DNA of 64,000 nt from a virus (IMGVR_UViG_3300032304_000977:1-64000); one strand, 5' to 3'; numbered from the stretch's first letter, positions 21,898 to 36,055 are shown. Numbers and translations are program-made. The notes: generated from the letters alone by a model not told the origin.

Positions 21898-21908
21898 AAC
21901 AAATCCCC

Positions 21909-22478: not shown

Positions 22479-22483
22479 TTAAG

Positions 22484-22537: not shown

Positions 22538-22551
22538 TCCCCCGAATAATA

Positions 22552-22571: not shown

Positions 22572-22572
22572 A

Positions 22573-22596
22573 TTAAGTTAGTGGTCACTTACTTAA
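22573..22596. repeat. 24-bp palindrome TTAAGTTAGTGGTCACTtACTTAA (one mismatch)
   Basis: Near-perfect inverted repeat immediately 3' of hairpin copy 2. Confidence 0.6.
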
Positions 22597-22660
22597 AAAA
22601 GGGTCGTCCAATGGGCTTCACAGACCACATATGGACGACCATAAGGTCACCTGACTCGAC

Positions 22661-24970
22661 TCAGGCGACAACCCCTACAAACCGATTCAAAAGAACACGA
22701 CTTGTTTTTTTAGCGGAAAGATGTTTACCGAACTGTTTTGCAATCGCTGCAGCAGTCATTTTTGTCATATCCTCAGTCAACTCTTGCTCATCAACCTTGT
22801 GGTCGGATTTGAGCAAGAACAATTCGTCATGACCTTCTACATCCAATGCAGCAAAACCTTCCTTCAACATATCGCGACGAACATTGTATACAACAACATC
22901 ATTTGTTGGCAGCAAATATGTATTCATCGCATAGTTGATATCACGAGAACGCTTATCGGTAACGTGGAATCCAATCGTCCCACAGTTATATCGATCTTTG
23001 ATCAGTTTCGTAAGAAGATTACCCCACTGAGTATGAGGTTCGATTTGATAAACTTTCTTTGTTATAGGACAACGCAAGAAACGGACATAACGAACTCTGG
23101 TATTATTTTCATACGTATGTGTACTGTTGATGTTACTGCTAGTATATCCATATCGTTCAGCATAAGGATCTCCTGTTGCTACATTTTTTGTCATACAAGA
23201 AGTAACTCTACCCCCATCACCATCTGTCAATTTGATCAATGTAAACTTCTCAATCTGATTGCCAAGAATAAACTTCTCAGAATAGTCATAGAGAAATGCC
23301 AATGATTCATTAAGTGGCGTTCCACCAAGTTCATAATTATCTGCGACAAACCCAAGAGACATACCAAACACTGTTTTACACATCTTATTGAATTCAGTCG
23401 TAGTCATGCGATTGCTGAACAACTCAATCATAGAAAAATCTGGTCGAATTTCTAACACATATTGCGAATCGCCAATTAATTTGTGTATATCATTTTTGTA
23501 GTTTTGATAACGTAGCTGCTCACGATATTCTTGTGACCATGATGGGTCAACAACTTCTACCGATTTCTTCATTTCTTTGTTATCACTAAAAGCGAACACT
23601 TGGAATGGAATCTTGATTCGATGACAAAACATTACCAGCGAAATAAGTTGCTTTACAGTATCGTTCAGATATTCTGACATAGATCCTGACCAATCAAGAA
23701 CAAATATCATACCATGTTTCTTACCATCTTTGGTAATGTTGATGGACTTGAACAAGTCTTCACGAATTTTATATTGAGACAATTTACGCACATCAAGAAC
23801 ACCTGACTTAGCAATCTGAACACGTTTGTAATCAGTTGCTGCTTTGCGCATTTCAAATTCTTTTACAAGATATGATACTACACGTTGTGTTTCCTGCATA
23901 AACTTATCATAGTCAATGTTTTGTTGAGCAGACAGTTTCATAATGTGGTTGATACGATGTTCATAACCACCATCAATAGTCTTCTTAATAACTGCATCAA
24001 CAACACCAACATGATCATTTAAAACTTGTTTGTATGGAACAATAATATCATCGATAAATGGACCAAATCGAACCATGTCGATATATTGATATCGAGTGTT
24101 TACGTCAGCAGATTCTGCCAATTTTTCTTCAAATGATTTGACAGTAACAGGATCCTTAACAGTTTCTTCTGTTTTGATGTTATCGGAATCCGCACCTGCG
24201 CCACGACCAGTGATATCATCACGATCTTCTTTTGGTTCAGTAGTATCCTCGCCAGATTCTTCATACTCATGGCGATTTTCTTCATCATCAAAATCAAAAT
24301 CGTCATCTAACGCATCAAGGTCATCATAATCATCATCTATTTGATTATGTTCTTCCAGCATTTTCTTATATTCTGCATCACCCTCTAGTGATTTGAGAAT
24401 ATCTTGTTTTTGTTTCTTAGTGAAGTCATATACTTTGCGAGCAAGATTGATAACATCATCAACTGTCTCAAGACGTGCGACTTGATCAACGAGATACTTT
24501 TCGGCTGGTGTAAACTTCACACCACATTCAAACCCTGCCTTGTAGTACAGATTAATTCTGTCAATCAACTGCAACGAAGCAAGTTCGTGTTTCTTGACAC
24601 CAAAGAAATCTCGCTCATTGAGTTGTTTATAACCCTTCGCGAATGCGGATCGAAGTCCAGGATACTTGCGCTTCATTAATTTCTCAATACGAGCATCCTC
24701 AAGAATATTACAGAAGCCATGTGGAATACCTTTACGTTCTTCGGTTGCTTTTGCTTTCTCGAAAATAGTAAAATCGGTATAAAGAGCATGAGCAACTTCG
24801 TGCGCTTTGAGCATCTCCTCAATCTCGGGAGTCATGTTTTGCCATTGCGGTAAAGTCAACACACGATTGACAACATCAAATGATGCAGTCGTAACAGGTG
24901 CTCGCTGGATCAACAGGTTTTCCTGAGCCAATAGGCGAGTAGTGATGTCGTTGGTTTGATGTTTATCCAT
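22661..24970 (-). CDS. von Willebrand factor A (vWA) domain protein, CobT-like
   Basis: 769 aa. MIDAS motif VLDWSGSMSEY in the C-terminal half; long poly-acidic linker (DDDYDDLDALDDDFDFDDEEN...) as in CobT; N-terminal HEVAH (HExxH). Located 3 genes downstream of the CobS-like ATPase. Confidence 0.7.
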   Translation of the reverse strand: MDKHQTNDITTRLLAQENLLIQRAPVTTASFDVVNRVLTLPQWQNMTPEIEEMLKAHEVAHALYTDFTIFEKAKATEERKGIPHGFCNILEDARIEKLMKRKYPGLRSAFAKGYKQLNERDFFGVKKHELASLQLIDRINLYYKAGFECGVKFTPAEKYLVDQVARLETVDDVINLARKVYDFTKKQKQDILKSLEGDAEYKKMLEEHNQIDDDYDDLDALDDDFDFDDEENRHEYEESGEDTTEPKEDRDDITGRGAGADSDNIKTEETVKDPVTVKSFEEKLAESADVNTRYQYIDMVRFGPFIDDIIVPYKQVLNDHVGVVDAVIKKTIDGGYEHRINHIMKLSAQQNIDYDKFMQETQRVVSYLVKEFEMRKAATDYKRVQIAKSGVLDVRKLSQYKIREDLFKSINITKDGKKHGMIFVLDWSGSMSEYLNDTVKQLISLVMFCHRIKIPFQVFAFSDNKEMKKSVEVVDPSWSQEYREQLRYQNYKNDIHKLIGDSQYVLEIRPDFSMIELFSNRMTTTEFNKMCKTVFGMSLGFVADNYELGGTPLNESLAFLYDYSEKFILGNQIEKFTLIKLTDGDGGRVTSCMTKNVATGDPYAERYGYTSSNINSTHTYENNTRVRYVRFLRCPITKKVYQIEPHTQWGNLLTKLIKDRYNCGTIGFHVTDKRSRDINYAMNTYLLPTNDVVVYNVRRDMLKEGFAALDVEGHDELFLLKSDHKVDEQELTEDMTKMTAAAIAKQFGKHLSAKKTSRVLLNRFVGVVA

Positions 24971-25002
24971 GATATTATTTAATGTCGAGTTTCAATAATT
25001 CA

Positions 25003-25031
25003 ATTATACACCGAAATGAAATAAATGTCAA
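25003..25031 (-). promoter_or_regulatory. sigma70-type early promoter TTGACA-N17-TATAAT
   Basis: Minus strand: cTTGACAtttatttcatttcggtgTATAAT. Upstream of the vWA gene. Confidence 0.6.
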
Positions 25032-25036
25032 GTATT

Positions 25037-25249
25037 TTATCTCAAGACGTATGTGTTGATTACAAGCGAAGATTTTTTGTTCGAGGGAACACGACTCTTC
25101 AGCACGCATCTTGTTTTTAATTTCGATTCAGACTGTTCAAATATTTGAACATATCGTTGTTCGGATTCAAGACACTGTTCTTTTGTTTCATAAGATGAAT
25201 GTATTGTGTAATCGGATGGTGCTGCTACGATGAAGAGAAGTGCCCACAT
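25037..25249 (-). CDS. small hydrophobic N-terminus protein
   Basis: 70-aa ORF. Confidence 0.3.
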   Translation of the reverse strand: MWALLFIVAAPSDYTIHSSYETKEQCLESEQRYVQIFEQSESKLKTRCVLKSRVPSNKKSSLVINTYVLR

Positions 25250-25251
25250 AA

Positions 25252-25992
25252 TTACACCACGAATCCTGTAGTATCTTTCTTAGCACGTCCCTTCGCCTTC
25301 AATCCAACGATAACATTTTTTTTGTCAAGAAAACGCAAATCGGTTTCATCGCCGTTGATAACAGGACGACCAAAATAGGTTTCAGGGAGTGAGCGGAAAA
25401 CAGCAGCCACATTCATACCAGCTGACGCAGCCAGACGAGTATCCATGTCATTACCATCTGCTTTAGAAAATGTAAGATGATAATTCTTTAGATGAGCAAC
25501 CTTACGATTGCGCATTTTTGTGTAGTCATAGAACTGCACTTCAGGAAACATCTGGAAAATGTTACGACCCTCTAGGATCTCATACTTTTCCCATGCAATA
25601 TCGCTAGTACCATTGAGACGGAAGCAAGGAATCAATCCTTTCTTTTCGGCTTGCTTGATTGCGAGTGTGATGTCTTTGAGCAGTTTACTCATAAACTCAG
25701 TACGATTTTCGTAAAATAATTTTGTTTTGCGAATACGTGCTTGCTGAATCACGTTGGTGGTTTCGCCTTTCTTGAACATACCACCACGACCAGCTGTGTT
25801 CAAACATGCAGCTGTGCAACCAGCAGTTCTTTTTGGACAAGTTTCGTAGCCAGATAAATTGGCAGGGGCGAGATGAAGGATGAAGGACATGTATCCTTTC
25901 TTTTCGCCTTTGAGTAACTTTGGGTTTCCAGTAGAAAGTAAATTCATATAAACCTCAAACCAATTTGCTGATTGAAACGTCGTATGACACAC
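25252..25992 (-). CDS. Cys-cluster protein (possible metal/Fe-S binding)
   Basis: 246 aa with YETCPKRTAGCTAACLNTAGRGG (C-x6-C-x3-C). Family not identifiable by eye. Confidence 0.4.
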   Translation of the reverse strand: MCHTTFQSANWFEVYMNLLSTGNPKLLKGEKKGYMSFILHLAPANLSGYETCPKRTAGCTAACLNTAGRGGMFKKGETTNVIQQARIRKTKLFYENRTEFMSKLLKDITLAIKQAEKKGLIPCFRLNGTSDIAWEKYEILEGRNIFQMFPEVQFYDYTKMRNRKVAHLKNYHLTFSKADGNDMDTRLAASAGMNVAAVFRSLPETYFGRPVINGDETDLRFLDKKNVIVGLKAKGRAKKDTTGFVV

Positions 25993-26167
25993 GATTCATC
26001 TTGTGGTCATAGACATGCATTCTGGAAGAAATGCCAATTCCATTAAACAAATTCTCAAACAGTTGACGCACAACAGTATTTACACTCACCGAGTCACCAA
26101 CGCCACGTTTGATAGCAGCAGCACTGGTATAAAACGAAACGCCATTCACAATCACACGATATTTCAT
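25955..26167 (-). CDS. small hypothetical protein
   Basis: 70-aa ORF immediately downstream of the promoter at 26197-26225. Overlaps the next gene by 38 nt. Confidence 0.3.
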   Translation of the reverse strand: MKYRVIVNGVSFYTSAAAIKRGVGDSVSVNTVVRQLFENLFNGIGISSRMHVYDHKMNRVSYDVSISKLV

Positions 26168-26196
26168 AACAACTCCTATTCGATCAATATAGAGTA

Positions 26197-26225
26197 ATTA
26201 TGCCTGGAAACCGAATAAATGTCAA
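26197..26225 (-). promoter_or_regulatory. sigma70-type early promoter TTGACA-N17-CATAAT
   Basis: Minus strand: cTTGACAtttattcggtttccaggCATAAT. Confidence 0.55.
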
Positions 26226-26230
26226 GCATT

Positions 26231-26251
26231 AACCCTACAGCTGGTAGGGTT
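26231..26251. repeat. ACCCTAC-N5-GTAGGGT hairpin family, copy 3
   Basis: aaccctacAGCTGgtagggtt, 5 bp from the -35 of the promoter at 26197-26225. Confidence 0.6.
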
Positions 26252-26275
26252 ATTTGGATCCTTACTGGATGGGGC

Positions 26276-26761
26276 TTACAGGCGCTCGACAATCGGTTTA
26301 TCTAGCATATCTTCGCCAAGGGAAAAATTCTCGTAATAACAGCGGACAAAACCCTTACGCTCAAGAGAGGTTATAATAATCAATTGTCGCATTGTCATTA
26401 ACTGGCGATTCATACCTTCCATATCATCATTGGGTAAATTTGTTCCCTCAGCATGAGATAGCATCAATGTCAGCAACAATAGTTGTTCCGTCTCATAGCA
26501 ATGTTCATTGTCTTCAGATTCCTCAGCCAATTCAAATATCTCTTGAAAAGAACGCTCGCCCAAACTCATAAGCCAATCGCCGACTGTTAGGTATGGTGTT
26601 TTTTGTAACGTAGCAGCCAGTAGTCGAATGGTTGGTGATGTGGTTTCAGATTTTAAAATATTGTCATAATTAAGATACCATTCTCGATCGCTGCCTGGAT
26701 AGTCAAACTCTAGATCCATATCATTCTTCTCCATTTCGTCGTTTTTGATATTCAGCTTCAT
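26276..26761 (-). CDS. hypothetical acidic protein (start uncertain)
   Basis: Track ORF 26276..26827 overlaps the upstream gene by about 107 nt. An internal Met (MKLNIKNDEM or MEKND) is more plausible. Confidence 0.35.
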   Translation of the reverse strand: MKLNIKNDEMEKNDMDLEFDYPGSDREWYLNYDNILKSETTSPTIRLLAATLQKTPYLTVGDWLMSLGERSFQEIFELAEESEDNEHCYETEQLLLLTLMLSHAEGTNLPNDDMEGMNRQLMTMRQLIIITSLERKGFVRCYYENFSLGEDMLDKPIVERL

Positions 26762-27278
26762 GCTTATCACACAGAGTGCGAATCCATCCACCATGACGAA
26801 TTGTGCCACGATCGCCACAAGTTTCACAAGTCACAGATGCCCATGACTCAGCCATACGAACCATACCATACACTTGGTCATCACCACCTTCATAATAGAA
26901 GCGGAGACCACCAAACTTTTCTTTGACTTGAACAACAGTTACATGTTGTATTTTGTCGGCGATCTTAATACCATTCTCCATAATTTCTTGAGCACGCTCT
27001 TCATCCCACTCTCGGACAGGTCGACCACGTGATAAATGTTTTATCAGAGCATCGTATCCTTTTCGACGAGCACGTTCAATGCGCAAGTCATAAGCACGTG
27101 AATTACGTTTCCATTTAATGTGGCTGTCGATATTACGACACAGAGAGTGCAGAATGTCAAACCATCCATCACCACACTCAAATCCCCAGCACATAGCAGT
27201 CTCGGTCATCGGAGCATAGCGACCTCGAAACATACGAGGAAATTCCTTAACCAATTGTGCATCTAGTTCTTCACGCAT
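26721..27278 (-). CDS. zinc-ribbon protein, member of YC-x-[KE]H paralog family
   Basis: 185 aa. CETCGDRGTIRHGGWIRTLCDKHEAE resembles the C-termini of ORFs 31440..31658 and 31666..32016. Confidence 0.4.
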   Translation of the reverse strand: MREELDAQLVKEFPRMFRGRYAPMTETAMCWGFECGDGWFDILHSLCRNIDSHIKWKRNSRAYDLRIERARRKGYDALIKHLSRGRPVREWDEERAQEIMENGIKIADKIQHVTVVQVKEKFGGLRFYYEGGDDQVYGMVRMAESWASVTCETCGDRGTIRHGGWIRTLCDKHEAEYQKRRNGEE

Positions 27279-27782
27279 TTAAAGCTCCTCATTAGGAAAG
27301 GCATCTGTTGGTTCAAACACATATTCTCTCTTCGGTGTATAAGGGAAAACAATTGGCACAAAGGACGCAGATCCAGTGTAGTATGATTTGAAAGGTTTAC
27401 CATCCTCATCACTCATATACCAGTTCCAAAAAATTTTACCTTCTAGGTCATAGGGCTGACCATTGAATCGATCAGATTGTTTGAACACATGGCTGCAACG
27501 ATTGTTTTGAAACACACCATCACTCACTTCATTCCACTCAGAGTCTTCTCCTGTGAGTGGAATGATTGGTTCAAAGGAAGCCAACTTCTTGAACAAGTCG
27601 ATAGTATAAGGTGCAGTCGAACCCGAGTGACCCTTTTTCGAAAACATATTAATCAATTTTAGAACATGCTGACAAATCGCACCCTGCATCTCATCGCAGT
27701 ATGTACCATCCTCATTCAACCAACCAGCTACTTTAAATTCTCTCAATGCGTGTTTTTTTAAATTGCTCATGCTGTAATCCAA
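27279..27782 (-). CDS. hypothetical protein
   Basis: 167-aa ORF. Confidence 0.4.
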   Translation of the reverse strand: MDYSMSNLKKHALREFKVAGWLNEDGTYCDEMQGAICQHVLKLINMFSKKGHSGSTAPYTIDLFKKLASFEPIIPLTGEDSEWNEVSDGVFQNNRCSHVFKQSDRFNGQPYDLEGKIFWNWYMSDEDGKPFKSYYTGSASFVPIVFPYTPKREYVFEPTDAFPNEEL

Positions 27783-28231
27783 TAATCGTTTTCTTTATAC
27801 ATAATAGACTCAGAGCCATCATATTCATCAATACGAAACTGAGTACCCTCTGGTATCCACTCAATGGTCAAATCGCCAGCGCCACCAAAATAGCCATCGG
27901 GGTATTTTTTTTCGCAATAGGCTACGATGTTATCAACCCAGCTGCTCCGACTCGCATCTTCAGCTTTCTCCATTTCCTCAACCATATAAACAATCGAGGG
28001 ATCAAACATCAACTCATCTCCGAGAATTTCTCCACGCATTGTGTTCCAAGTGCTCCAGCCAGCACCATATCCTGGCGAATACAGAACCGCAACCAATCCA
28101 TTCCGAATCTCTTTTTTTACACCACTCATAGGATAATTCCTCTTTTCAACAAATTTAATAAACTCTGGATCATCCAAAGGAACAATCCTATCCATATTAG
28201 CCATCGCTTTTTTGCTTCGATATCCACTCAT
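27767..28231 (-). CDS. hypothetical protein
   Basis: 154-aa ORF. Confidence 0.4.
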   Translation of the reverse strand: MSGYRSKKAMANMDRIVPLDDPEFIKFVEKRNYPMSGVKKEIRNGLVAVLYSPGYGAGWSTWNTMRGEILGDELMFDPSIVYMVEEMEKAEDASRSSWVDNIVAYCEKKYPDGYFGGAGDLTIEWIPEGTQFRIDEYDGSESIMYKENDYWITA

Positions 28232-28587
28232 CTGCTCACACTCAATTCTGCATTCGGATTATCCCAGCAAGCATTCCTGTAATTATAAACAAAATTACAA
28301 AGACCATCATAAGAACCCCAACCATTTTCTGGATTAAACTTCTTGAAATACTCGGGATCGGAAAGTAGAATATTCCAACCAATATCAAGAAGATCAGAGA
28401 TTTCTTTAGCGTATTTAAACCCATGCTCATCTGGTCGCCAGAGAACATCATACAACGATAGATCCGCAACACCTACCCACTCTAGACCATACTTAACCTC
28501 ACGAGCCATTGCTCCAAGATTATGTGTGATATTACCAGAGTAAACCGAAGTCGGCTGAACTACCATCAAATCAACATCAAGACTCAT
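28228..28587 (-). CDS. hypothetical protein
   Basis: 119-aa ORF with 4-nt overlaps to both neighbours (operon packing). Confidence 0.4.
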   Translation of the reverse strand: MSLDVDLMVVQPTSVYSGNITHNLGAMAREVKYGLEWVGVADLSLYDVLWRPDEHGFKYAKEISDLLDIGWNILLSDPEYFKKFNPENGWGSYDGLCNFVYNYRNACWDNPNAELSVSR

Positions 28588-28811
28588 ATCGATTTCCCTC
28601 TGATTACGTTGACCTTAAAATCAACACAAGTACCTTCCAACAGCTCAATCTTACCTTGACCTGCCATTTTAACCAAATCTCGCATACGTTGCTTTTGCAT
28701 TTCCATATCCACCATACATTCAGTTTCGTCTGTGTAATAACCTGTAGACTGCATAAACTCACAATTGCCATTCAAACATATAAACAGCAAGGGTATAAAA
28801 ATAGTTGTCAC
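28584..28811 (-). CDS. small Cys-containing protein
   Basis: 75-aa ORF. Confidence 0.3.
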   Translation of the reverse strand: MTTIFIPLLFICLNGNCEFMQSTGYYTDETECMVDMEMQKQRMRDLVKMAGQGKIELLEGTCVDFKVNVIRGKSI

Positions 28812-29062
28812 GAAAAATCCTTCAATCGTTTCATTCCCTTAGCAGGGACATGTACTACATAACGTGTATCGCCATTCATCTTTATCGGAAGATCGAGATG
28901 GCAAAGAATCATAGTAGAATCCTCATATTCTTCACGAATTACCATACCAATCACTGGAACCTTACCAACCTTACCTGAGATACGATCGCCATAGACCCAT
29001 GTAGGTGTAGGTTTATTCGCATCTCGCTTCTCAAAATAATCTTTAAGACTTGCCATAAACAC
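28808..29062 (-). CDS. small hypothetical protein
   Basis: 84 aa. Downstream of the consensus promoter at 29227-29255. Confidence 0.35.
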   Translation of the reverse strand: MFMASLKDYFEKRDANKPTPTWVYGDRISGKVGKVPVIGMVIREEYEDSTMILCHLDLPIKMNGDTRYVVHVPAKGMKRLKDFS

Positions 29063-29226
29063 CCCATTTCCTAATACAGAGAGTGATGATTAAACCTACC
29101 GTAAGTTCTACAGCAAATAAACCAAGAATTATCCATAGTATAATCATTGTAATCTCTTATATCGAATATACAAACCAATACATACCAAAATGAAAATGAA
29201 AGTCATTGTCTAATCCATCCTTCGTT

Positions 29227-29255
29227 AATTATACACGTGTCGCTGATTAATGTCA
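29227..29255 (-). promoter_or_regulatory. sigma70-type early promoter TTGACA-N17-TATAAT
   Basis: Minus strand: cTTGACAttaatcagcgacacgtgTATAAT. Confidence 0.6.
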
Positions 29256-29362
29256 AGAGATATGTCCGAAGTTCGAAAGGAAGAAGAAAAAGTCTCGGGG
29301 GACAAGCCGAAAGGGACCCGACCCGAAAAAAAAGGACCCGAATTTAATAGTCCATTTTTTGA

Positions 29363-29372
29363 CCCCCCCCCC
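29363..29372. repeat. homopolymeric C10 tract (G10 on the coding strand)
   Basis: gaCCCCCCCCCCttatgggg, within a locally GC-rich non-coding stretch that contains GACCCGA direct repeats (29300-29345). Confidence 0.7.
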
Positions 29373-29402
29373 TTATGGGGTGCTGAATGTCATTTAGTCT
29401 TC

Positions 29403-29579
29403 GTCACTCAGACTCATCATCCAGTACTGATTCTCCTGCTCTAGCCATTCCATGTATTCTTCATGTTCTTCTTGGTATAGCATAGCCACATACTCTTTTA
29501 CTCTTTCTTCTCTCTCTTGCTCAGCAATCTCTTGTAACAACGCATTCACATCATCCATGGTAGTAGTCATAGTGCTAGT
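29403..29579 (-). CDS. small highly acidic protein (58 aa, below track threshold)
   Basis: Minus-strand ORF MTTTMDDVNALLQEIAEQEREERVKEYVAMLYQEEHEEYMEWLEQENQYWMMSLSDED. About one third Asp/Glu. Coordinates approximate. Confidence 0.3.
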
Positions 29580-29740
29580 CCTTAGTCTTTCTCTTAGAAA
29601 CCTCTACATGGTTATTATACAGTTCTTCCTCATAGTTGTCAAATAAATCTCCGAACACATGTGATTCTTCGAATGTCTCTTCATCAGAGATCAACACATG
29701 CATGGGAACACCCAACAGGGAGGATGCATCAGCGAGGGTC
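29570..29740 (-). CDS. small acidic protein (about 56 aa, below track threshold)
   Basis: Minus-strand ORF MTLADASSLLGVPMHVLISDEETFEESHVFGDLFDNYEEELYNNHVEVSKRKTKD. Coordinates approximate. Confidence 0.25.
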
Positions 29741-29750
29741 ATAGTAGGCT

Positions 29751-29758
29751 CCCCCCCC
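29751..29758. repeat. homopolymeric C8 tract immediately 3' of the AAA ATPase stop codon
   Basis: ggctCCCCCCCCta followed by tta (stop on minus strand). Confidence 0.7.
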
Positions 29759-29760
29759 TA

Positions 29761-30693
29761 TTAAGCAGTCAACATATAAGTAGCCAGATCTTTCCACTCG
29801 GTGTTGGCAGCACGAACCTTGGACACAGAGATCAGCGTACGCAGGGAGATTTCTTTGCACTCATCTTTGATCTCACGGATCAGCGCCAGCGAGTCAGCGA
29901 TGATAGACTTATCGTACTCAGGGAGAAACTCATCAGACATAGCGATGTGCTCCATGCGCTCAATCTTCTGATCAGTTGTCATGCTCAGATCAATCATCAT
30001 TGAACGTGAGCGGATGGCTTGGTCAATCTTACCATCATCCATATTAGAGATGAAGATAATACGACCTTCAAAGTTGAAGCTCTTAGGCAGGTCTTCATCT
30101 TTGAAGTCAGCGTTCCAGGAAATGATGCGCTTACCGTAGCTGTCAAGAGCAGACTTCAGAATGTTCAGCGCAACTGGGTCTTTGAGAATGCTATCGCAGT
30201 CATCAAACACGATGATGCCTTTGTTGTTCTCAAACAAAGTGCGGTACAAACCCTTGGGAGTAGAGTAACCCTTGACCATGCGATAGCACTTGCGCATGTT
30301 CAGAATAGAACCAACAGCAAACTCACCGAGATCCGAGATGTCCTTCAGACCATTGCTCTCAAGTGTCTTGGTGACAGTGTAAGTCTTACCGAGACCACCT
30401 TCGCCAGTGATAATAGCGGAGGGCTGTACACCAGTCGCGACCATGTTCACCAACTTCTCAACAAAGCCGAAGCGAGTGTTAATGCCAAACTTGTCGGCTT
30501 TGGGTTCAGTCACGGGAGTGGTACCAACGATCTGAGCAAATGCCATTTTAGTACCAGTGATCTTCTTGTAGTGATATTCAACCACCTGTTCGAGACCAGC
30601 ACCAGTTTTGCCAGTCTTCACAATCTTGTCGCCAAGACGGATCTCAGATTTACCATCACGGAAGGTCTTCACAGAGACTTTAAGAGCATTCAT
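29761..30693 (-). CDS. AAA+/P-loop ATPase of unknown function (start trimmed to MNALKV)
   Basis: Track ORF 29761..30753 starts inside the -35 box. ATG at 30691-30693 has an AGGA RBS. Walker A GEGGLGKTY, Walker B IIVFDDCD, sensor-like IIFISNMD. Coding GC visibly higher than surrounding genes. Confidence 0.6.
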   Translation of the reverse strand: MNALKVSVKTFRDGKSEIRLGDKIVKTGKTGAGLEQVVEYHYKKITGTKMAFAQIVGTTPVTEPKADKFGINTRFGFVEKLVNMVATGVQPSAIITGEGGLGKTYTVTKTLESNGLKDISDLGEFAVGSILNMRKCYRMVKGYSTPKGLYRTLFENNKGIIVFDDCDSILKDPVALNILKSALDSYGKRIISWNADFKDEDLPKSFNFEGRIIFISNMDDGKIDQAIRSRSMMIDLSMTTDQKIERMEHIAMSDEFLPEYDKSIIADSLALIREIKDECKEISLRTLISVSKVRAANTEWKDLATYMLTA

Positions 30694-30724
30694 TTCAATT
30701 CCTTTTTTCATATTCAATAATAGA

Positions 30725-30753
30725 ATTATGCCTGAGAACCGAATTAATAGCAA
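30725..30753 (-). promoter_or_regulatory. sigma70-type early promoter TTGCTA-N17-CATAAT (variant)
   Basis: Minus strand: aTTGCTAttaattcggttctcaggCATAAT. Same conserved spacer TTAATTCGG as the other copies. Upstream of the AAA ATPase. Confidence 0.5.
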
Positions 30754-30758
30754 TAGAA

Positions 30759-30780
30759 AAACCCTACGTATAGTAGGGTT
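30759..30780. repeat. ACCCTAC-N5-GTAGGGT hairpin family, copy 4
   Basis: aaccctacGTATAgtagggtt adjacent to the promoter at 30725-30753. Confidence 0.6.
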
Positions 30781-30788
30781 ATCTTAAG

Positions 30789-30950
30789 TTAGTTAGTACT
30801 TACTTCCAGGTCTATATTATAAATCGGGGTTTCGCCCGAATCGTTATATTCTAGCCATTTCTGGATTTCTTTTATAGCCGATTTATAATTATCAAATTCA
30901 GAAACAAAAAATTTAACCCCAAACTCGTCCGTAATATAAAGTTTAAACAT
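30789..30950 (-). CDS. small hypothetical protein (start trimmed to MFKLYI)
   Basis: Track ORF 30789..30983 starts inside the -10 hexamer 30971-30976. The internal Met is clear of the promoter. Confidence 0.3.
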   Translation of the reverse strand: MFKLYITDEFGVKFFVSEFDNYKSAIKEIQKWLEYNDSGETPIYNIDLEVSTN

Positions 30951-30970
30951 CTTTTCTCCTTTGAAAAGAT

Positions 30971-30999
30971 GATTATAACTCATCTTTGGATTAATGTCA
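30971..30999 (-). promoter_or_regulatory. sigma70-type early promoter TTGACA-N17-TATAAT
   Basis: Minus strand: aTTGACAttaatccaaagatgagtTATAAT. Confidence 0.6.
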
Positions 31000-31022
31000 A
31001 TCCGATGTAAGTAAGCACTAAC

Positions 31023-31379
31023 TTACCTCCACAGATCTCCATCCCTGTCTATCTCATACGAGAATCCAGGATCCTCAGGGGGAATAACGCCAAACTCCTC
31101 CATCTCAGCATACAGTTGCTCGGCTGTCTTTCCATCCGCACGTTTCTGCTGAGTAATAATCCACTTGCTTTTCTCAGCAGACTCTTTACCACTTGCCATA
31201 TGCGCACGATTACCATCCGCGATCTTAGTCTTTGTTTCCTGTGAGTGCGATCTTAACGTAGCAGCACAACTACGAGAGCAGTTTGGTCCACGTTTCCTAT
31301 GCTCAGCACCGCAAACAGGACACTCTTTTAATCTATAAACTCCTGGCATGTTTCTCCTTACGCAACTGTTCGAACACAA
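31023..31379 (-). CDS. zinc-ribbon protein
   Basis: 118 aa with CPVCGAEHRKRGPNCSRSC. GC-elevated coding. Confidence 0.4.
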   Translation of the reverse strand: MCSNSCVRRNMPGVYRLKECPVCGAEHRKRGPNCSRSCAATLRSHSQETKTKIADGNRAHMASGKESAEKSKWIITQQKRADGKTAEQLYAEMEEFGVIPPEDPGFSYEIDRDGDLWR

Positions 31380-31439
31380 CCACCACTAAATAGAGCACAT
31401 CACAATTCTACCTTGAGATGCTCCTGCGTCACTAGATGC

Positions 31440-31658
31440 TCATGCTTCACTCCAATATGTATAAGAATCATTCACATAATAATCTTCCTCTTCCATTGCA
31501 TGCTTTAAGCAATAAGGATGATCACCTGCGAATTGTGTATGTCTAATATGTACTGCCATTGCTCCACATTCTAAACATCTCTCATATTCTTTACTTGCAG
31601 CCTCTTCAGCTTGCTCAACTATTCTATTGTTCAGCTTTGTATAATCAATTTTGCTCAT
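31440..31658 (-). CDS. zinc-ribbon protein, YC-x-[KE]H family
   Basis: 72 aa. CLECGAMAVH...HPYCLKHAMEEED. Confidence 0.4.
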   Translation of the reverse strand: MSKIDYTKLNNRIVEQAEEAASKEYERCLECGAMAVHIRHTQFAGDHPYCLKHAMEEEDYYVNDSYTYWSEA

Positions 31659-31665
31659 ATTCTTC

Positions 31666-32016
31666 TTAACTCTCTCTTCCTGCTATAAATGCAGCTTGCA
31701 ACCATACCATTATACGCTTGGCTTTCTCAGGTGTCAACTCACAATCAGTGAAGAATCTATCACTACGATATGAATATCCAGATGCTCCTGCGTCACTTTC
31801 AAGTTCATTAAACCAATCAAAGAACGCCAACTCTTTTCTATTCTCCCAATAGGATGTATCTGTATCCTGACAGAAGTCATCTTCAAAAATAGCATGTTCA
31901 TCGCAGTAATTCATATCTCCGTGAACTGTTTTTCTTATCCAATCGACCTTGTTATGACAGTCGGGAGAGCAGCAAAAAAGAGCCGTAGTCTTTTTCATTG
32001 GTTTGGTTGCGGTCAT
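31666..32016 (-). CDS. zinc-ribbon protein, YC-x-[KE]H family
   Basis: 116 aa. CCSPDCHNKVDWIRKTVHGDMNYCDEHAIFEDD. Paralogous to the previous gene. Confidence 0.4.
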   Translation of the reverse strand: MTATKPMKKTTALFCCSPDCHNKVDWIRKTVHGDMNYCDEHAIFEDDFCQDTDTSYWENRKELAFFDWFNELESDAGASGYSYRSDRFFTDCELTPEKAKRIMVWLQAAFIAGRES

Positions 32017-32234
32017 ACATATCCCTTTCCGAACAGTTTATGTATAGATGTAGTTGCATCTTCACGTTCAGCGATTATTTCCATCTCGTACTTACTTGGA
32101 TAATGTCTAAGTAAACGTCTTGCACGCTCACGAATGTCCTTTGGTACTCTGGGTGTTTTACTTGGATCTAGCAATTCATATAAGAATTCCTGAGTCCAAA
32201 CCACTGCGTTTGTTCTTTCTACTGGGACTGTCAT
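32013..32234 (-). CDS. small hypothetical protein
   Basis: 73-aa ORF, 4-nt overlap packing. Confidence 0.3.
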   Translation of the reverse strand: MTVPVERTNAVVWTQEFLYELLDPSKTPRVPKDIRERARRLLRHYPSKYEMEIIAEREDATTSIHKLFGKGYV

Positions 32235-32464
32235 TCTATACCACCAAATGCACGAATTATCATATTACATGCGGTAATATTTGTTTTGTTGCCAACCACA
32301 TCATCAGGGTGTAACCAATAGCCATTCGGATTTAATTCACTGCGAGGATTGTCTTCCCATTGCTTTAGTTCATCAATCAAATAATCACGCCACTGTGTCA
32401 CGTTTGCGATCGTGATAGCATCAGCTGCAGCCTGTGGAATCTCAAATGCATTTGTCATTACCAA
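32231..32464 (-). CDS. small hypothetical protein
   Basis: 77-aa ORF. Confidence 0.3.
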   Translation of the reverse strand: MVMTNAFEIPQAAADAITIANVTQWRDYLIDELKQWEDNPRSELNPNGYWLHPDDVVGNKTNITACNMIIRAFGGIE

Positions 32465-32667
32465 TCCTTTTCGTCTTTTAATGTAAATGTAACTGTTCCC
32501 GCAGACTTAAACATCTTCACATCATGAATCGCTACCTTCAGGTATGTTCCTATGCCAGATGATGAATCTGCTATCAACTCTACTTGTGCTGAATCAGGGA
32601 ATTCTTCAAACAACTCTGTCAATAGTTTTACATCGTTGCGTGTTAGCCAAATGTTATTACTTGTCAT
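32458..32667 (-). CDS. small hypothetical protein
   Basis: 69-aa ORF. Confidence 0.3.
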   Translation of the reverse strand: MTSNNIWLTRNDVKLLTELFEEFPDSAQVELIADSSSGIGTYLKVAIHDVKMFKSAGTVTFTLKDEKDW

Positions 32668-32668
32668 T

Positions 32669-32881
32669 CTATCGCTCCAATATTACATAATCGCCAAAGT
32701 ATTTATCAAAGGTAGTGATCAGATGTTCATAGTTGCCAGCTGTCATCTCATTTACAATTTCTGCACCATTCAGCTCCAGCTGTTTTGCTAGTTGCTTTGC
32801 TGTTCCCATCAAATAGAATGCGTTACCCTGTGGACCTGTGAGATCAATCACAGGGGTAGTGTTTTGTTTTTCACGAATCAT
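32669..32881 (-). CDS. small hypothetical protein
   Basis: 70-aa ORF. Confidence 0.3.
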   Translation of the reverse strand: MIREKQNTTPVIDLTGPQGNAFYLMGTAKQLAKQLELNGAEIVNEMTAGNYEHLITTFDKYFGDYVILER

Positions 32882-33329
32882 AGCTGGCTCCCAACACTCT
32901 CATCATCTTACTCTTTACTCTTAAGTTTGGTTGACGGTAGCGATCAGTGGGCGTAAATCCCATCATCGCTCCAATCTCAACCACTGCACCACTACGGCAG
33001 ATACCAGCATGGCAGTGCACTAGCACGTTCATACTTTTCTCCATAGCGTGGCTCAACAACATCACAAGTTCATTGGCTTGACTGTCGTTGATTTTAAAAT
33101 CATCATCAAATCCATCCTCGTCCTCTGCATCCAGAAACTCAAAGCAATGAACTTCTTTAAATTGTCGCTTGGTAGCTTTGAATTCAGTAGCAGGATCTTG
33201 AATGCGAATGAGCATGACATTCTCACCAAGATCACTATGATGACCAAGATGAATGTCTGCCATGCTACAGTTTTCAATCCAACGTATCACTTTACCACTC
33301 GCTTTCGTATTCTTCTTCGTAGGTTTCAC
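32871..33329 (-). CDS. protein tyrosine / dual-specificity phosphatase
   Basis: 152 aa with the CX5R catalytic loop VHCHAGICRSGAV (HCxxGxxRS). True start may be an internal Met. Confidence 0.6.
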   Translation of the reverse strand: MKPTKKNTKASGKVIRWIENCSMADIHLGHHSDLGENVMLIRIQDPATEFKATKRQFKEVHCFEFLDAEDEDGFDDDFKINDSQANELVMLLSHAMEKSMNVLVHCHAGICRSGAVVEIGAMMGFTPTDRYRQPNLRVKSKMMRVLGASYDS

Positions 33330-33510
33330 TCAAATCAATGATATCGCTGAGGTCGGTAGCACCCCTGCGGATATAACTGCGACCACCATCAGTAAAGATA
33401 GCACCACAACCACAACGTACAAAATCATGGCGATGTTTGCTTTCAATAACATCGCCACACTTTGCGCATTGACATTTGTTGACAACCACGACCTCACGTT
33501 TTCTAATCGG
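33292..33510 (-). CDS. zinc-binding protein (C-terminal part of track ORF 33292..33738)
   Basis: CQCAKCGD...HRHDFVRCGCGAIF cysteine/histidine cluster. The N-terminal half of the track ORF overlaps ORF 33515..33766 in another frame, so a start at MPIRKRE is proposed. Confidence 0.3.
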   Translation of the reverse strand, partial: PIRKREVVVVNKCQCAKCGDVIESKHRHDFVRCGCGAIFTDGGRSYIRRGATDLSDIIDLSETYEEEYESEW

Positions 33511-33514
33511 CATA

Positions 33515-33766
33515 TCATATCCAATCTTTCTTACCATCAAATTGCTCATTATATTCATAGCCAGCGAAATAAGCACGCAGTTCTGCCATTGACATTTCTG
33601 CTGACTCAATGCGCTTTCCGTGACCTGTTCCCTCAGGATACCAGTGTGGATCTTGTGGGCGACTATACCAGCTGTCAGCTGAACCTCGATCAAAGGGACT
33701 ACCATGTGTACGATCGAATGTTTGTCCACGATATTCAATTGTGTTGTTCATCTCTTCACTCATCAT
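33515..33766 (-). CDS. hypothetical protein
   Basis: 83-aa ORF. Competes with the 148-aa overlapping ORF. Confidence 0.3.
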   Translation of the reverse strand: MMSEEMNNTIEYRGQTFDRTHGSPFDRGSADSWYSRPQDPHWYPEGTGHGKRIESAEMSMAELRAYFAGYEYNEQFDGKKDWI

Positions 33767-34026
33767 TCTTCTCCGTAGTAACCATAATCTTCATCGGTAC
33801 CAAACCCAGCACTTGCCATTGCTGAGTCAAAGTCACCATCCATTTCGCCAGGATCAGCATCATAGTTTTCGTCAGCATAATCACGCACAATCTCACTGAC
33901 TTCTGTCACTGGTATATCAAACTTGGCAGCAATATCTTCGTCTGCCCATCCATCATTATGCATATCCATAATGTCAACAATTAAATCTGAAAAGTATCCC
34001 ATTTTATATCCTGTAAGCAATACCAA
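33763..34026 (-). CDS. small highly acidic protein
   Basis: 87 aa, very D/E-rich (ENYDADPGEMDGDFDSAMASAGFGTDEDYGYYGEE). Confidence 0.35.
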   Translation of the reverse strand: MVLLTGYKMGYFSDLIVDIMDMHNDGWADEDIAAKFDIPVTEVSEIVRDYADENYDADPGEMDGDFDSAMASAGFGTDEDYGYYGEE

Positions 34027-34264
34027 TTACATAAATGAGCAACAATCCTGCATTGACAGCGATCATTGCTCGCTCTTTAATACAAATTCCCCAAATCAAA
34101 AACAACAATGCACCAGCATTTAGCAACCAGATGTTGAGCGGATCAAGCATCAGCGCAGTTGCTGCAGCACCAGCAAGGGTAACTGCGGTAGCAATCCATT
34201 TCAGCAAATTCACATACATCTCAATCTCCTGAATCAATCTGATAGCGATCACCACAATGAACAC
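34004..34264 (-). CDS. small membrane protein
   Basis: 86 aa with 2-3 hydrophobic helices (WIATAVTLAGAAATALML, LLNAGALLFLIWGICI). Confidence 0.35.
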   Translation of the reverse strand: MFIVVIAIRLIQEIEMYVNLLKWIATAVTLAGAAATALMLDPLNIWLLNAGALLFLIWGICIKERAMIAVNAGLLLIYVIGIAYRI

Positions 34265-34505
34265 AGGTATATTCAGTCAAACAGCGACCAACAGTTTTGC
34301 TGGTATATTCATGAGTACATGCACTACCATCAGGACGAGCACGGACTTCGCCTTTCGGACTGCCGAACATATACTGACCACCACAATTTCTGCAGGGTAG
34401 TGTATCAGTTTCTTTATCGTAGCCAGCGATCACGGACTTATACTTATTATCGCCAGCGGAGATACGACCGCTACCGTTACAAACAGGACAAACACATTTC
34501 AACAT
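34221..34505 (-). CDS. zinc-finger protein
   Basis: 94 aa with CVCPVCNGSG ... CRNCGG ... CVHCGD: four CxxC pairs. Confidence 0.4.
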   Translation of the reverse strand: MLKCVCPVCNGSGRISAGDNKYKSVIAGYDKETDTLPCRNCGGQYMFGSPKGEVRARPDGSACTHEYTSKTVGRCLTEYTCVHCGDRYQIDSGD

Positions 34506-34738
34506 TAAACAACTTTCTTCATAGCATTAACACCACTTGCCATAATCAACAAACCAGCGATCGCCAGTCCAGTACAGACCAACACATCATTTTCAGGAAC
34601 ATCAAGACCACCAACTGCACCAAACACAATCAGTAGACCAACAATCATTCGAATCGAACCCTTCATAATTTTCTCCTTACTTAGACAAGTTGATAATGCG
34701 ACCATCATATTCCATGAAAGAAACTTCCATCGGAACAA
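34505..34738 (-). CDS. small membrane protein
   Basis: 77 aa, two hydrophobic helices. Confidence 0.35.
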   Translation of the reverse strand: MFRWKFLSWNMMVALSTCLSKEKIMKGSIRMIVGLLIVFGAVGGLDVPENDVLVCTGLAIAGLLIMASGVNAMKKVV

Positions 34739-34961
34739 ACACAGTTTTCGCTATACGGGAAGAACGAACACCCTTACATTTTTTACCATCAAACACATCG
34801 GTCATCACATAGATTTTGAAAGATGCGTATGGCACTTCACGAGGATTTATTTCTTCAATTCTACCTTCAACGTAGCAGTCGTTGCGACCAAGCATCGGTT
34901 TGAAGTCATAAGCACGGATTACATCACCAACTGTAGCAATATTTGCGTTTTTCATATTCAT
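34677..34961 (-). CDS. hypothetical protein (start trimmed to MNMKNAN)
   Basis: Track ORF 34677..34979. AAGGAA RBS precedes the internal ATG. Downstream of the promoter copy at 34986-35014. Confidence 0.35.
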   Translation of the reverse strand: MNMKNANIATVGDVIRAYDFKPMLGRNDCYVEGRIEEINPREVPYASFKIYVMTDVFDGKKCKGVRSSRIAKTVFVPMEVSFMEYDGRIINLSK

Positions 34962-35015
34962 TTCCTTTTCAATCATCATAAGATAATTATACGTCCAAAC
35001 CGAATTAATGTCAAG
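34962..35015. repeat. 54-bp exact direct repeat, copy B
   Basis: Identical to 22484-22537. Contains the RBS, -10, spacer and -35 of the promoter. Confidence 0.8.
34986..35014 (-). promoter_or_regulatory. sigma70-type early promoter TTGACA-N17-TATAAT
   Basis: Minus strand: cTTGACAttaattcggtttggacgTATAAT. Identical to the copy at 22508-22536 (part of the 54-bp repeat). Confidence 0.6.
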
Positions 35016-35352
35016 CGAATAACCCTACACGCTGTAGGGTCTTTTTGAACGTGTTCAGGGCTGGCTGCAGGTCGTTGATCAGCTGGGTTTCGTAAGCATG
35101 AGCATCTTTTTTGCCACGCACTACTGTGATCACCTGCGTATCCCAGTTTTCGTAGGTACGGATGGCTTCTGACAGTGCCCAGTCTTTGTCTTGACGATGA
35201 GCACGATATTGATGCTGTTGCCAGCGAGTCGCAAGGGTTTTAAGTTGGGCACGTCCACGCATCACTGTTACACCAATGTAGCTGTCGCCTGTGTCAAGAC
35301 AGGTCAGCTGGTATATCAGGTGGTTACGATCAGTTCGTTTTTTCCTATTCAT
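35011..35352 (-). CDS. GIY-YIG family nuclease (homing-endonuclease-like, catalytic domain only)
   Basis: Track ORF 35011..35388 starts with TTG inside the -35 box. Met13 at 35350-35352 is likelier. Motif HLIYQLTCLDTGDSYIGVT...R...RWQQH...YETQLIN fits GIY-YIG (GIY...YIG...R...H...E...N). Its stop codon lies inside the next promoter's -35. Confidence 0.55.
   Translation of the reverse strand: MNRKKRTDRNHLIYQLTCLDTGDSYIGVTVMRGRAQLKTLATRWQQHQYRAHRQDKDWALSEAIRTYENWDTQVITVVRGKKDAHAYETQLINDLQPALNTFKKTLQRVGLFA
35021..35041. repeat. ACCCTAC-N5-GTAGGGT hairpin family, copy 5
   Basis: aaccctacACGCTgtagggtc adjacent to the promoter at 34986-35014. Lies within the last codons of the GIY-YIG ORF. Confidence 0.6.
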
Positions 35353-35359
35353 ACAGTCT

Positions 35360-35388
35360 ATTATAGGGGAAAACCGAATTATTGTCAA
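35360..35388 (-). promoter_or_regulatory. sigma70-type early promoter TTGACA-N17-TATAAT
   Basis: Minus strand: cTTGACAataattcggttttccccTATAAT. Upstream of the GIY-YIG gene; would give a nearly leaderless transcript. Confidence 0.55.
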
Positions 35389-35394
35389 GCAATA

Positions 35395-35414
35395 ACCCTA
35401 CAAGTTGTAGGGGT
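35395..35414. repeat. ACCCTAC-N5-GTAGGGT hairpin family, copy 6 (variant CCCTAC...GTAGGGG)
   Basis: aaccctacAAGTTgtaggggtt adjacent to the promoter at 35360-35388 and the 24-bp palindrome. Confidence 0.55.
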
Positions 35415-35438
35415 TTAAGTTAGTGGTCACTAACTTAA
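35415..35438. repeat. 24-bp perfect palindrome TTAAGTTAGTG-G-TCACTAACTTAA
   Basis: Perfect 11-bp arms around a central G. Overlaps the stop of ORF 35435..36055. Degenerate copies at about 30783-30807 and 31005-31024. Confidence 0.65.
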
Positions 35439-36055
35439 AGATTTAATTCAGTTAGAGATACATTCTTTCCGATATTACCTTTTACGAATATATTGAACGC
35501 AAGACTGACACGTGGTGTCTCATGTTCTTTTTTATCTACGTAATGTATAACACTAGATGGAAATAAAATTATTTTACCTGGATTAACTTTAAACCATGAC
35601 ATCTCTGCATTAAACATGTTGCTGTCTTCAGGATTATCTGGTTGAATCTTTATCTGCTCATAAGCTGTTTTCTCAAAACAAATCCTGTCATCTTCGCCAT
35701 GAATATACAACACACCAGAAATATAACTGTTGGAGTGTGTATGTTTATGATGAAATTGATCTTTCATTGTCCAATTTAACCAACTCTGAGTAATGTATGG
35801 TTGTGCGTTTTTATTCTTAATTAGTTTAGTAAACCAATAATTAACAACCTCCATTAAATCAGTTCTTAAATTCAGTAACTCTGGTTCATCAAGAACATAA
35901 TTGTTATGTGAGGTTGCATTACCTTCATTCTTAATGGTTTTCTTCCCCATCTCATTGAAGAAATCTATTTCCTCATCTGTAAATTCCCTACCCAAAGCAC
36001 TATGCAATGTTGGTATTGGAAATATAGGTTCAACTGTTGGTTGTATGATTGGCAT
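35435..36055 (-). CDS. 2OG-Fe(II) oxygenase-like / cupin protein
   Basis: 206 aa with HHKHTHSNSYISGVLYIHGEDD, resembling the phage-type 2OG-Fe(II) oxygenase signature (H.H..S..SGV.Y). Low certainty. Confidence 0.4.
   Translation of the reverse strand: MPIIQPTVEPIFPIPTLHSALGREFTDEEIDFFNEMGKKTIKNEGNATSHNNYVLDEPELLNLRTDLMEVVNYWFTKLIKNKNAQPYITQSWLNWTMKDQFHHKHTHSNSYISGVLYIHGEDDRICFEKTAYEQIKIQPDNPEDSNMFNAEMSWFKVNPGKIILFPSSVIHYVDKKEHETPRVSLAFNIFVKGNIGKNVSLTELNL

Follow-up and report, generated by a model that had tools for sequence, protein, structure and literature searches.

What does a 24-bp palindrome do that recurs next to the early promoters of a phage? The question is raised by IMGVR_UViG_3300032304_000977:1-64000, a 64,000-nt stretch of viral DNA (hereafter the window), in which copies of such a palindrome lie between positions 22573 and 35438. 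The initial annotation had taken it for a candidate operator of a dimeric DNA-binding protein, and had named a homing or recombination site and a bidirectional terminator as alternatives. To judge from its genes, the window is part of an uncultured T4-like phage: its Rad50/gp46-like protein (36474-38186) shares ~51% identity with homologues from Methylophilales phage Melnitz and cyanomyophages, a syntenic relative (L335; L numbers denote metagenomic comparison loci or contigs) encodes gp23, UvsY, UvsW, gp47, gp46, and gp45, and a DNA search of INPHARED with the window gave no match and thus no close cultured relative. We report that the palindrome is a non-random repeat and that, as comparison with relatives indicates, it marks the 5' boundary of mobile early-promoter cassettes. 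We consider the chances about even that it is also the sequence-specific recognition site of a dimeric DNA-binding regulator, a prediction that we weigh here against its rivals.

The palindrome and its conservation

The site at 35415-35438 (copy 1) had been described as a perfect 11+1+11 palindrome. Its 11-bp arms are perfect, but the centre consists of two non-complementary bases, GT, and the geometry is therefore 11+2+11, which makes 24 bp. The one-mismatch copy at 22573-22596 (copy 2) is borne out by its sequence, TTAAGTTAGTGGTCACTTACTTAA, and the degenerate copies placed near 30783-30807 and 31005-31024 are also real, lying at 30785-30806 and 31007-31026 (copies 3 and 4, Table 1). A scan for the 24-mer with up to three mismatches returned copies 1 and 2 only, where none is expected (100 dinucleotide shuffles). 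The 11-mer half-site with at most one mismatch occurs seven times against 1.8 expected, a count reached by 0 of 100 shuffles, and the generalised motif TNAGTNAG-(N2 or N6)-CTNACTNA has three matches against 0.05 expected. The exact palindrome found no match in IMG/VR, a strict-pattern scan of 185,579 bacterial and archaeal genomes gave a single match at chance level (a Roseburia metagenome-assembled genome) and hence no clue to the host, and a literature search for the sequence returned unrelated primers only.

A core of the palindrome, AGTTAGT-N4-ACTAACT, recurs in related phages and in unrelated contigs. Among T4-like relatives it lies directly upstream of promoters in L038, L095/L133, L148, L152, L180, L210, L232, L246, L254, L314, L327, and L329, with four central bases that vary freely (GACC, GAAC, ATCC, AGCT, ACTA, GCTA, AAGC, ACCA). 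Copy 4 is found as an identical 20-mer in L246, and copy 3 is of the same subtype as the palindromes that precede GIY-YIG nuclease genes in L152, L180, and L210. The core also heads promoter cassettes (TTGACA..TATAAT) in contigs whose genes are unrelated to those of the window (L186, L224, L356, L383, L397, L415, L443). In L186 (IMGVR_UViG_3300021399_000003, a 169-kb contig) there are ~18 core copies per 10 kb, each followed by GGCCGGCC and, 40-60 nt later, by TTGACA..TATAAT, and L224 has eight copies per ~10 kb. The dense cassettes of these two contigs read AGTTAGT-N4-ACTAACT, GGCCGGCC, a TTAACATAAACTTTACAT-like sequence, and TTGACA..TATAAT, and belong to phage without a recognisable cultured relative.

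Is it the sequence or the ability to pair that is maintained? Folded as RNA, copy 1 reaches -8.2 kcal/mol (z = -4.6), and copy 2 reaches -4.1 kcal/mol, which 10 of 200 shuffles equal. A variant arm, AGTAAGT, creates an A.A mismatch that halves the hairpin energy, and it recurs uncompensated in copies 2 and 3 and in L254, L005, and L246. The better-conserved arm is the promoter-proximal CACTAACTTAA, and when 41 distinct promoter-linked sites are pooled, flank complementarity more than two positions out is at chance level. On balance, the sequence appears to be under more constraint than the pairing, with pairing probably selected in at least one lineage. The core, widened to 11-bp arms in the window phage, would on this evidence suit the site of a dimeric regulator.

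Mobile promoter cassettes bounded by the palindrome

The palindromes belong to units that resemble the promoter-early stem-loop (PeSL) elements, which are mobile regulatory units in T4-type phages (Arbiol et al., 2010, PMC2839356; Comeau et al., 2014, PMC4122927); according to these papers, a PeSL starts with the stop codon of the gene before it, in AT-rich sequence, and the stem-loop position varies. By their sequence organisation, the cassettes of the window are promoter/stem-loop units of the PeSL type. What is new relative to the initial annotation is that the palindrome is one module of this known kind of mobile cassette, and it forms the upstream (5') module of a cassette subclass.

Alignments place the cassette boundary within the palindrome itself. 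BLAST homology to non-orthologous cassettes of relatives starts inside it (at 22594/22593 or 35436/35435) and stops past the 5' untranslated region (UTR). Cassette location also differs between related phages, as comparison with L005 makes clear. The L005 site orthologous to copy 2, downstream of a peptidase-like gene, has the hairpin and promoter and no palindrome, and a 110-bp L005 cassette that is 81% identical to 22594-22485 stands upstream of a GP88-like gene, where the window's own cassette is without a palindrome. At the copy 1 locus, palindrome and hairpin are kept downstream of the gp46/oxygenase block in the window, L254, and L133, and both flanks differ: the window has the oxygenase gene as its immediate upstream neighbour and the GIY-YIG gene on the downstream side, in L254 an additional 99-aa open reading frame (ORF) stands upstream, and L133 has two additional small ORFs upstream and lacks the GIY-YIG gene. 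In all three the last upstream ORF, a different one each time, ends inside the palindrome. The cassette at 22.5 kb is chimeric, with an upstream half like the 35.4-kb cassette and a promoter and UTR like the cassette downstream of the GIY-YIG gene, which has a cassette on each side. Cassettes, palindrome included, may spread when their conserved parts recombine.

All long ORFs of the window, and its 17 consensus sigma-70 promoters, are on the minus strand. A CCCTAC-N5-GTAGGG hairpin (stem-loop folding at -9.4 kcal/mol) precedes six of the 17 promoters, and three of these six hairpin cassettes carry the palindrome. The hairpin and consensus promoter that had been noted beside each of the two best copies are present, as are the promoters beside the degenerate copies, of which that of copy 3 is the weaker (Table 1). 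Along the direction of transcription, the cassettes run from the end of the upstream gene through the palindrome, 2-5 nt, the hairpin, 7-16 nt, and the -35 and -10 hexamers to the 5' UTR; after copy 4 the -35 hexamer starts 6 nt on, with no hairpin between. The stop codon of the upstream ORF lies inside copy 1 (TAA, 35437-35435, of a 2OG-Fe(II) oxygenase gene), copy 3 (30791-30789, of a 64-aa ORF), and copy 4 (of ORF 31023-31379), and copy 2 comes after a separate terminator-like hairpin. A role as a universal stop-codon trap was rejected: the arm of copy 2 stops all three frames, that of copy 1 just two. The repeat reported as 54 bp long does exist, but it measures 59 nt. Many of the 17 promoters have the spacer TTGACATTAATTCGGTTT in common. 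Spacers are conserved (TTGACAtTAATTCGGTTT..) at 22508-22536, 34986-35014, 35360-35388, 26197-26225, and 21399-21427, which is unusual for sigma-70, and could serve as a homology patch for cassette recombination or as an additional recognition element.

Table 1. Palindrome copies and associated features of the window
Feature	Position	Strand	Details
Palindrome copy 1, perfect	35415-35438		TTAAGTTAGTGGTCACTAACTTAA; minus-strand core AGTTAGT-GACC-ACTAACT
Palindrome copy 2, one mismatch	22573-22596		minus-strand left arm TTAAGTAAGTG, giving the A.A mismatch
Palindrome copy 3, degenerate	30785-30806		TAAGTTAGTTAGTACTTACTTC; minus strand GAAGTAAGT-ACTA-ACTAACTTA
Palindrome copy 4, shorter-spacing variant	31007-31026		minus strand GTAAGTTAGTGCTTACTTAC = GTAAGTTAG-TG-CTTACTTAC
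PeSL stem-loop	35396-35412	-	CCCTAC-N5-GTAGGG; between copy 1 and promoter
PeSL stem-loop	22553-22569	-	CCTTAC..GTAGGG; between copy 2 and promoter
PeSL stem-loop	30762-30778	-	between copy 3 and weaker promoter TTGCTA..CATAAT (30753-30725)
Consensus sigma-70 promoter, 12/12	35360-35388	-	serves GIY-YIG gene; ATG 7 nt past -10 hexamer, leaderless layout
Consensus promoter, 12/12	22508-22536	-	downstream of copy 2; inside 59-nt repeat
Consensus promoter, 12/12	30972-31000	-	directly downstream of copy 4
Intrinsic-terminator-like hairpin	22597-22641	-	GGTCGTCCA...TGGACGACC + T-run; ends 769-aa peptidase-like gene, abuts copy 2
Promoter + 5' UTR repeat	22479-22537	-	59 nt, 97% identical to 34957-35015
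GIY-YIG nuclease gene	35011-35352	-	113 aa, catalytic domain only

About 30 small ORFs, most of them without a Pfam hit, are encoded in the 25-35 kb part of the window. Relatives without the 12-kb small-ORF block have the gene order gp46, (deformylase), GIY-YIG, peptidase, 124-aa gene, AAA_5; the two best palindrome copies of the window therefore flank the GIY-YIG gene, a hyperplastic insert, and the peptidase gene. Products recognised in the early region, all encoded on the minus strand, include a Tad3 homologue, an inhibitor of type I Thoeris and thus an anti-defence protein in the hyperplastic region (27279-27782, Pfam E = 6.6e-36), a dual-specificity phosphatase-like protein (32871-33329), a GP88-family protein (25252-25992, PF17338) whose family is also represented beside the palindrome arrays of L154 and of L221, an AAA_5/CbbQ-like ATPase (20224-21399), and the 769-aa protein (22661-24970), which matches phrog_459 'peptidase'.

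Regulator site, stem-loop, or nuclease target

Relative to their promoters, the four window copies, each a lone site, are centred at about -73.5, -83.5, -77.5, and -51.5 (copies 1 to 4). Across loci, palindromes without a hairpin are centred at ~-51.5 (copy 4, L397, L443), ~-61.5 (L148, the L152 group, L327/L328, L383/L415), or ~-70.5 (L329, L356), and with a hairpin between palindrome and promoter the centres fall at -73.5 to -84.5. In a Rayleigh test for a 10-10.5 bp period, 19 sites reach p ~0.01 and the 13 hairpin-less ones 0.0003-0.003, and phasing is seen too in an automated, redundant site set; since the sites are not independent, this helical phasing is suggestive only. From about -51 to -84, a bound protein dimer might modulate the adjacent early promoter. 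In L229, L251, and L253, a palindrome (AAGTTAGTGAGTACTCACTAACTT) lies ~11 nt past the -10 hexamer, the classical position of a repressor operator, and the promoter sits inside another palindrome (GCCAAAATTATAT/ATATAATTTTGGC).

Bacterial sequences offer one hint as to what might bind. An exact-pattern scan of metagenomes returned few bacterial intergenic sites and many coding coincidences, in which the same 20-mer encodes the peptide K-L-V-x-T-N-L in two phage gene families: a helicase-like gene (..VIDESSRFKDPSTK.., L137, L138, L146, L346, L350, and ~50 more) and a second family (..RRALELRQEGSQTSVAKYAKM.., L147, L187, L355, L372, and others). A bacterial context of manganese or iron homeostasis is provided by two loci only. 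In L345, a contig of 67% GC, an NRAMP/MntH gene (Pfam Nramp, 8e-139) has the exact AAGTTAGTG-NN-CACTAACTT 23 nt upstream of it, and in L359 the exact motif closely precedes the gene of a Fe_dep_repress (DtxR/MntR) regulator, which diverges from a gene for an SBP_bac_6 transporter. In enterobacteria, the MntR consensus reads AACATAGCnnnnGCTATGTT (PMC1698941). The operator of D. radiodurans DR2539 at an NRAMP gene is ATTTTAGTCGCGCCTAAAAT, with which the phage motif agrees at 6/8 + 5/8 positions in the same layout. MntR sites are 18 bp long with 9-bp inverted repeats and include distant upstream sites of the E. coli mntP type, and the protein can activate when bound upstream of promoters (PMC11882963).

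These similarities suggest that the binding protein, if there is one, would most likely be encoded by the host, in view of the MntR/DtxR-like architecture of the site and its identity with motifs at bacterial Nramp and DtxR-family genes. We regard a regulator of the MntR type as a tentative possibility. Rather unlikely, in our estimation, is the fuller scenario in which the palindromes are operators of a host manganese sensor (MntR/DtxR) carried on mobile cassettes, where, in phages of several unrelated lineages, they would couple early transcription to manganese status or soak up the sensor. In that case the ~18 copies per 10 kb of L186 could titrate the sensor and relieve the repression of manganese uptake, to the benefit of phage enzymes that depend on the metal, such as the gp46/gp47 nuclease. 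If binding were confirmed, a portable module would place phage early promoters under a host metal sensor, a new way to read or manipulate host physiology.

A phage-encoded regulator was sought as well. Pfam scans of the ~30 small window ORFs gave no convincing DNA-binding domain. The product of an 87-aa ORF (33763-34026, minus strand), with a weak helix-turn-helix hit and an acidic tail, is the sole candidate for a phage-encoded binder; homologues occur in L133, L254, L152, L008, L017, and L018 and in the palindrome-bearing L229 and L251. Compared by eye, none of the CRP, FNR, NtcA, LexA, and CtrA consensus sequences is in register with the palindrome. Separately, contigs of a siphovirus-like clade (L142, L154, L165-L169, L176, L182, L196, L199, L204, L209, L213, L221, L233, L234) carry three to six palindromes (GTTAGTGAGTGCTCACTAAC and variants), ~28-29 bp apart, immediately upstream of terS (Sf6-like) and terL. 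These arrays may be a packaging or regulatory site, and their likeness to the window motif may be a selection effect. A protein common to these contigs and the window was rejected: only TerS/TerL are common among the contigs, and nothing is shared with the window.

How does the regulator reading stand against these results? The original suggestion of a dimeric-protein operator beside early promoters gains from arms conserved around a free centre, from arm changes that go uncompensated, and from the identity with bacterial sites, but other observations count against it. At about -51 to -84, the palindrome sits ahead of the promoter instead of covering it, and is therefore not a classical repressor operator. 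The set of sites used for phasing was partly hand-curated, with non-independent members, and the palindrome-promoter spacing in L186 (54-71 nt) is unphased. Neither the window nor loci L001-L253 yielded a DtxR/MntR homologue, so that the regulator, were the MntR reading right, would have to come from the host, and the palindrome also precedes two TetR-family genes (L348, L388), which leaves the regulator family not fixed. In the nearest relative, L254, the palindrome is degraded to 8/11 arm pairs, and perfect symmetry is thus not strongly conserved. In L038 a paired G>A / C>T change leaves the palindrome perfect. The outer flanks of the L224 sites covary (CGG/CCG, GCA/TGC, CTG/CAG) and one core pair changes in a compensatory way, which is indicative of a hairpin or cruciform under selection in this lineage. 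PeSL stems also keep their sequence within a genome by recombination, and conservation among close relatives is not decisive.

The best-placed rival, if itself rather unlikely, is that the palindrome is a second PeSL stem-loop module that acts as nucleic acid and has no dedicated binding protein, whether by attenuating read-through, by making the upstream mRNA more stable at its 3' end, or by offering recombining cassettes a patch of homology or a cruciform. The L224 covariation and the paired change in L038 speak for it. So do the transcription of the palindrome as the 3' end of the upstream gene, its folding in copy 1, the start of inter-cassette homology at the palindrome, and its occupation of the PeSL stem-loop place in hairpin-less cassettes (copy 4, L152-type, L397, L443); the stop-codon start, AT-richness, and variable stem-loop position reported for PeSLs agree with it as well. 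The rival is weakened by the AU-rich stem without a U-tract, the poor fold of copy 2, the never-compensated A.A variant, and flank complementarity at chance in the pooled sites. Structure alone also leaves unexplained the recurrence of the core in unrelated phages and the operator-like bacterial sites. A better hairpin of the terminator type comes next in the cassette, and another precedes copy 2. An intrinsic terminator, or the bidirectional one proposed earlier, is poorly supported and was rejected on similar grounds: the hairpin of the palindrome is weak and lacks a U-tract (AACCCC or TACCC follows), which would make it a poor terminator, a terminator scan did not list it, and all genes lie on one strand. 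Rfam covariance models gave no match at E <= 1 in 20000-38000.

Next comes the GIY-YIG gene, which lies beside copy 1 as annotated. Could the palindrome be the recognition site of a homodimer of this 113-aa nuclease, used in cleavage, in homing, or as an operator for autoregulation, and so mark the cassettes into which the nuclease gene spreads or where the nuclease stimulates recombination? We consider this improbable. Of group I intron endonucleases, only the catalytic half is matched by the protein. In favour of this reading, the catalytic residues are conserved; a DNA-binding domain is absent, and the protein would thus need to oligomerise. IMG/VR holds at least 543 relatives, and the protein has no tblastn match in INPHARED cultured phages and no PDB sequence match. 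The ORF runs through the next PeSL hairpin (35039-35023) and stops at a TGA within the TTGACA of the next promoter; the window protein is without the family's usual C-terminus (..NTFGVK), and the 3' end of the gene looks like a recombination joint.

Some evidence ties palindrome and gene together. Copy 1 is directly upstream of the GIY-YIG promoter. We also fetched 67 distinct GIY-YIG loci by protein similarity alone, disregarding the palindrome. The family appears leaderless, with an in-frame ATG 6-9 nt past the -10 hexamer in 58 of the 67 (exactly 6 nt in 53). With the exception of one lineage, palindromes of this type occur only in the 250 nt 5' of the gene, and none elsewhere in ~408 kb. 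They are present at 6/44 GIY-YIG promoters against 2/141 other same-strand promoters of the same loci (odds ratio 11, p = 0.0026), and a second palindrome, (T)GTTG-N5-10-CAAC(A), is ~12-fold enriched upstream of GIY-YIG promoters (2.9 against ~0.25 per kb elsewhere; GIY-YIG against other promoters, odds ratio 4.2, p = 1e-4), with counts that in neither case are phylogenetically independent. This second palindrome occurs in 1-5 copies, is lineage-specific (L265-L333), and lies at times inside the C-terminal coding sequence of the upstream gene (..LPWELDVAKKQQ..). The authors of the PeSL work raised the question of a helper protein targeting the stem-loops (PMC2839356, PMC4122927), which is in keeping with a nuclease of this kind.

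Other comparisons dissociate the two. Besides L254/L255, the closest relatives of the protein (L344, L343, L339, L335, with 84%, 73%, 69%, and 62% identity) have the hairpin and leaderless promoter and no such palindrome, palindrome type is not congruent with the GIY-YIG protein tree, and L133 has the palindrome at the same locus with the gene absent. We thus reject an obligatory GIY-YIG operator or target and see in the nuclease gene a frequent neighbour, not the owner, of the palindrome. Moreover, three of the four window copies and the ~18 of L186 are not beside any GIY-YIG gene, and an intact perfect site adjoining the gene is not what would be expected from homing immunity. The homing-site alternative of the initial annotation accordingly keeps the enrichment at GIY-YIG promoters in its favour but is weakened by the palindrome-free closest relatives. 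More frequent control of the GIY-YIG promoter is a possible explanation of the association.

Finally, that the palindrome is a functionless hitch-hiker, an AT-rich and stop-codon-rich junction copied with the cassettes and perfect only of late, is very improbable: the degraded symmetry in L254, the palindrome-free orthologous cassette of L005, and the presence in just half of the window's hairpin cassettes would fit it, but the core persists at GIY-YIG promoters whose proteins are just 45-52% identical and whose remaining intergenic DNA is unalignable, it reaches high copy number in unrelated phage lineages, and its position relative to the -35 hexamer is non-random.

Comparison with known systems

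Among nucleases, the GIY-YIG homing endonuclease I-TevI autorepresses at an operator in its own promoter, and T4 carries free-standing Seg/Mob endonuclease genes. In the window too, a GIY-YIG gene under a promoter of its own is set among phage genes, close to a DNA site that is a potential target or operator. The window differs in that the protein is without the DNA-binding domain of I-TevI, the site has palindromic symmetry and is placed ahead of the promoter, and the association of palindrome and gene is not obligatory.

Phages are also known to carry operators of host regulators, such as the DtxR operator at the tox promoter of corynephage beta and the NtcA and PhoB boxes of cyanophages. 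Such sites tie phage expression to host physiology and control specific auxiliary genes, whereas the site in the window is on a repeated mobile promoter cassette before assorted small early genes.

Measured against the operators of the MntR/DtxR family, namely the enterobacterial MntR consensus, the DR2539 operator, and the IdeR/DtxR iron box (TTAGGTTAGGCTAACCTAA), the phage core AAGTTAGT-N4-ACTAACTT shares the format of an 18-20 bp inverted repeat (8+4+8) with a TAG/CTA register and a free centre. Shared as well is the placement: in bacterial contigs the exact motif stands before an Nramp gene and before a gene for a DtxR-family regulator. Family operators overlap the promoter for repression, or form an array that reaches the -35 hexamer for activation (B. 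subtilis type), whereas the window copies do neither; the genes downstream of the phage palindromes have no evident metal link, and the same palindrome also precedes TetR-family genes.

The closest likeness in organisation is to the PeSLs. As in the described elements, the window belongs to a T4-like genome in which a near-perfect sigma-70 promoter and a conserved stem-loop precede each ORF of a small-ORF region, the copies border insertions, deletions, and replacements between relatives (window against L005, L133, and L254), and chimeras occur. The authors of the PeSL work did not settle whether the conserved parts are recognised by a dedicated DNA-binding protein (PMC2839356, PMC4122927). 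Unlike the elements described there, the window stem-loop has the sequence CCCTAC-N5-GTAGGG with a conserved promoter spacer, and a subset of cassettes has an extra AT-rich palindrome of conserved sequence before the stem-loop, a module not mentioned in the accessible portions of the PeSL papers. A further difference from the PeSLs described there is that the palindrome core heads promoter cassettes in phages unrelated to T4 too. Should binding go unconfirmed, the palindrome would still be a well-defined marker with which to follow how cassettes move among metagenomic phage genomes. In T4-like phages, gene shuffling is thought to be driven by PeSL cassettes, and the window presents a subclass of them with an additional operator-like palindrome.

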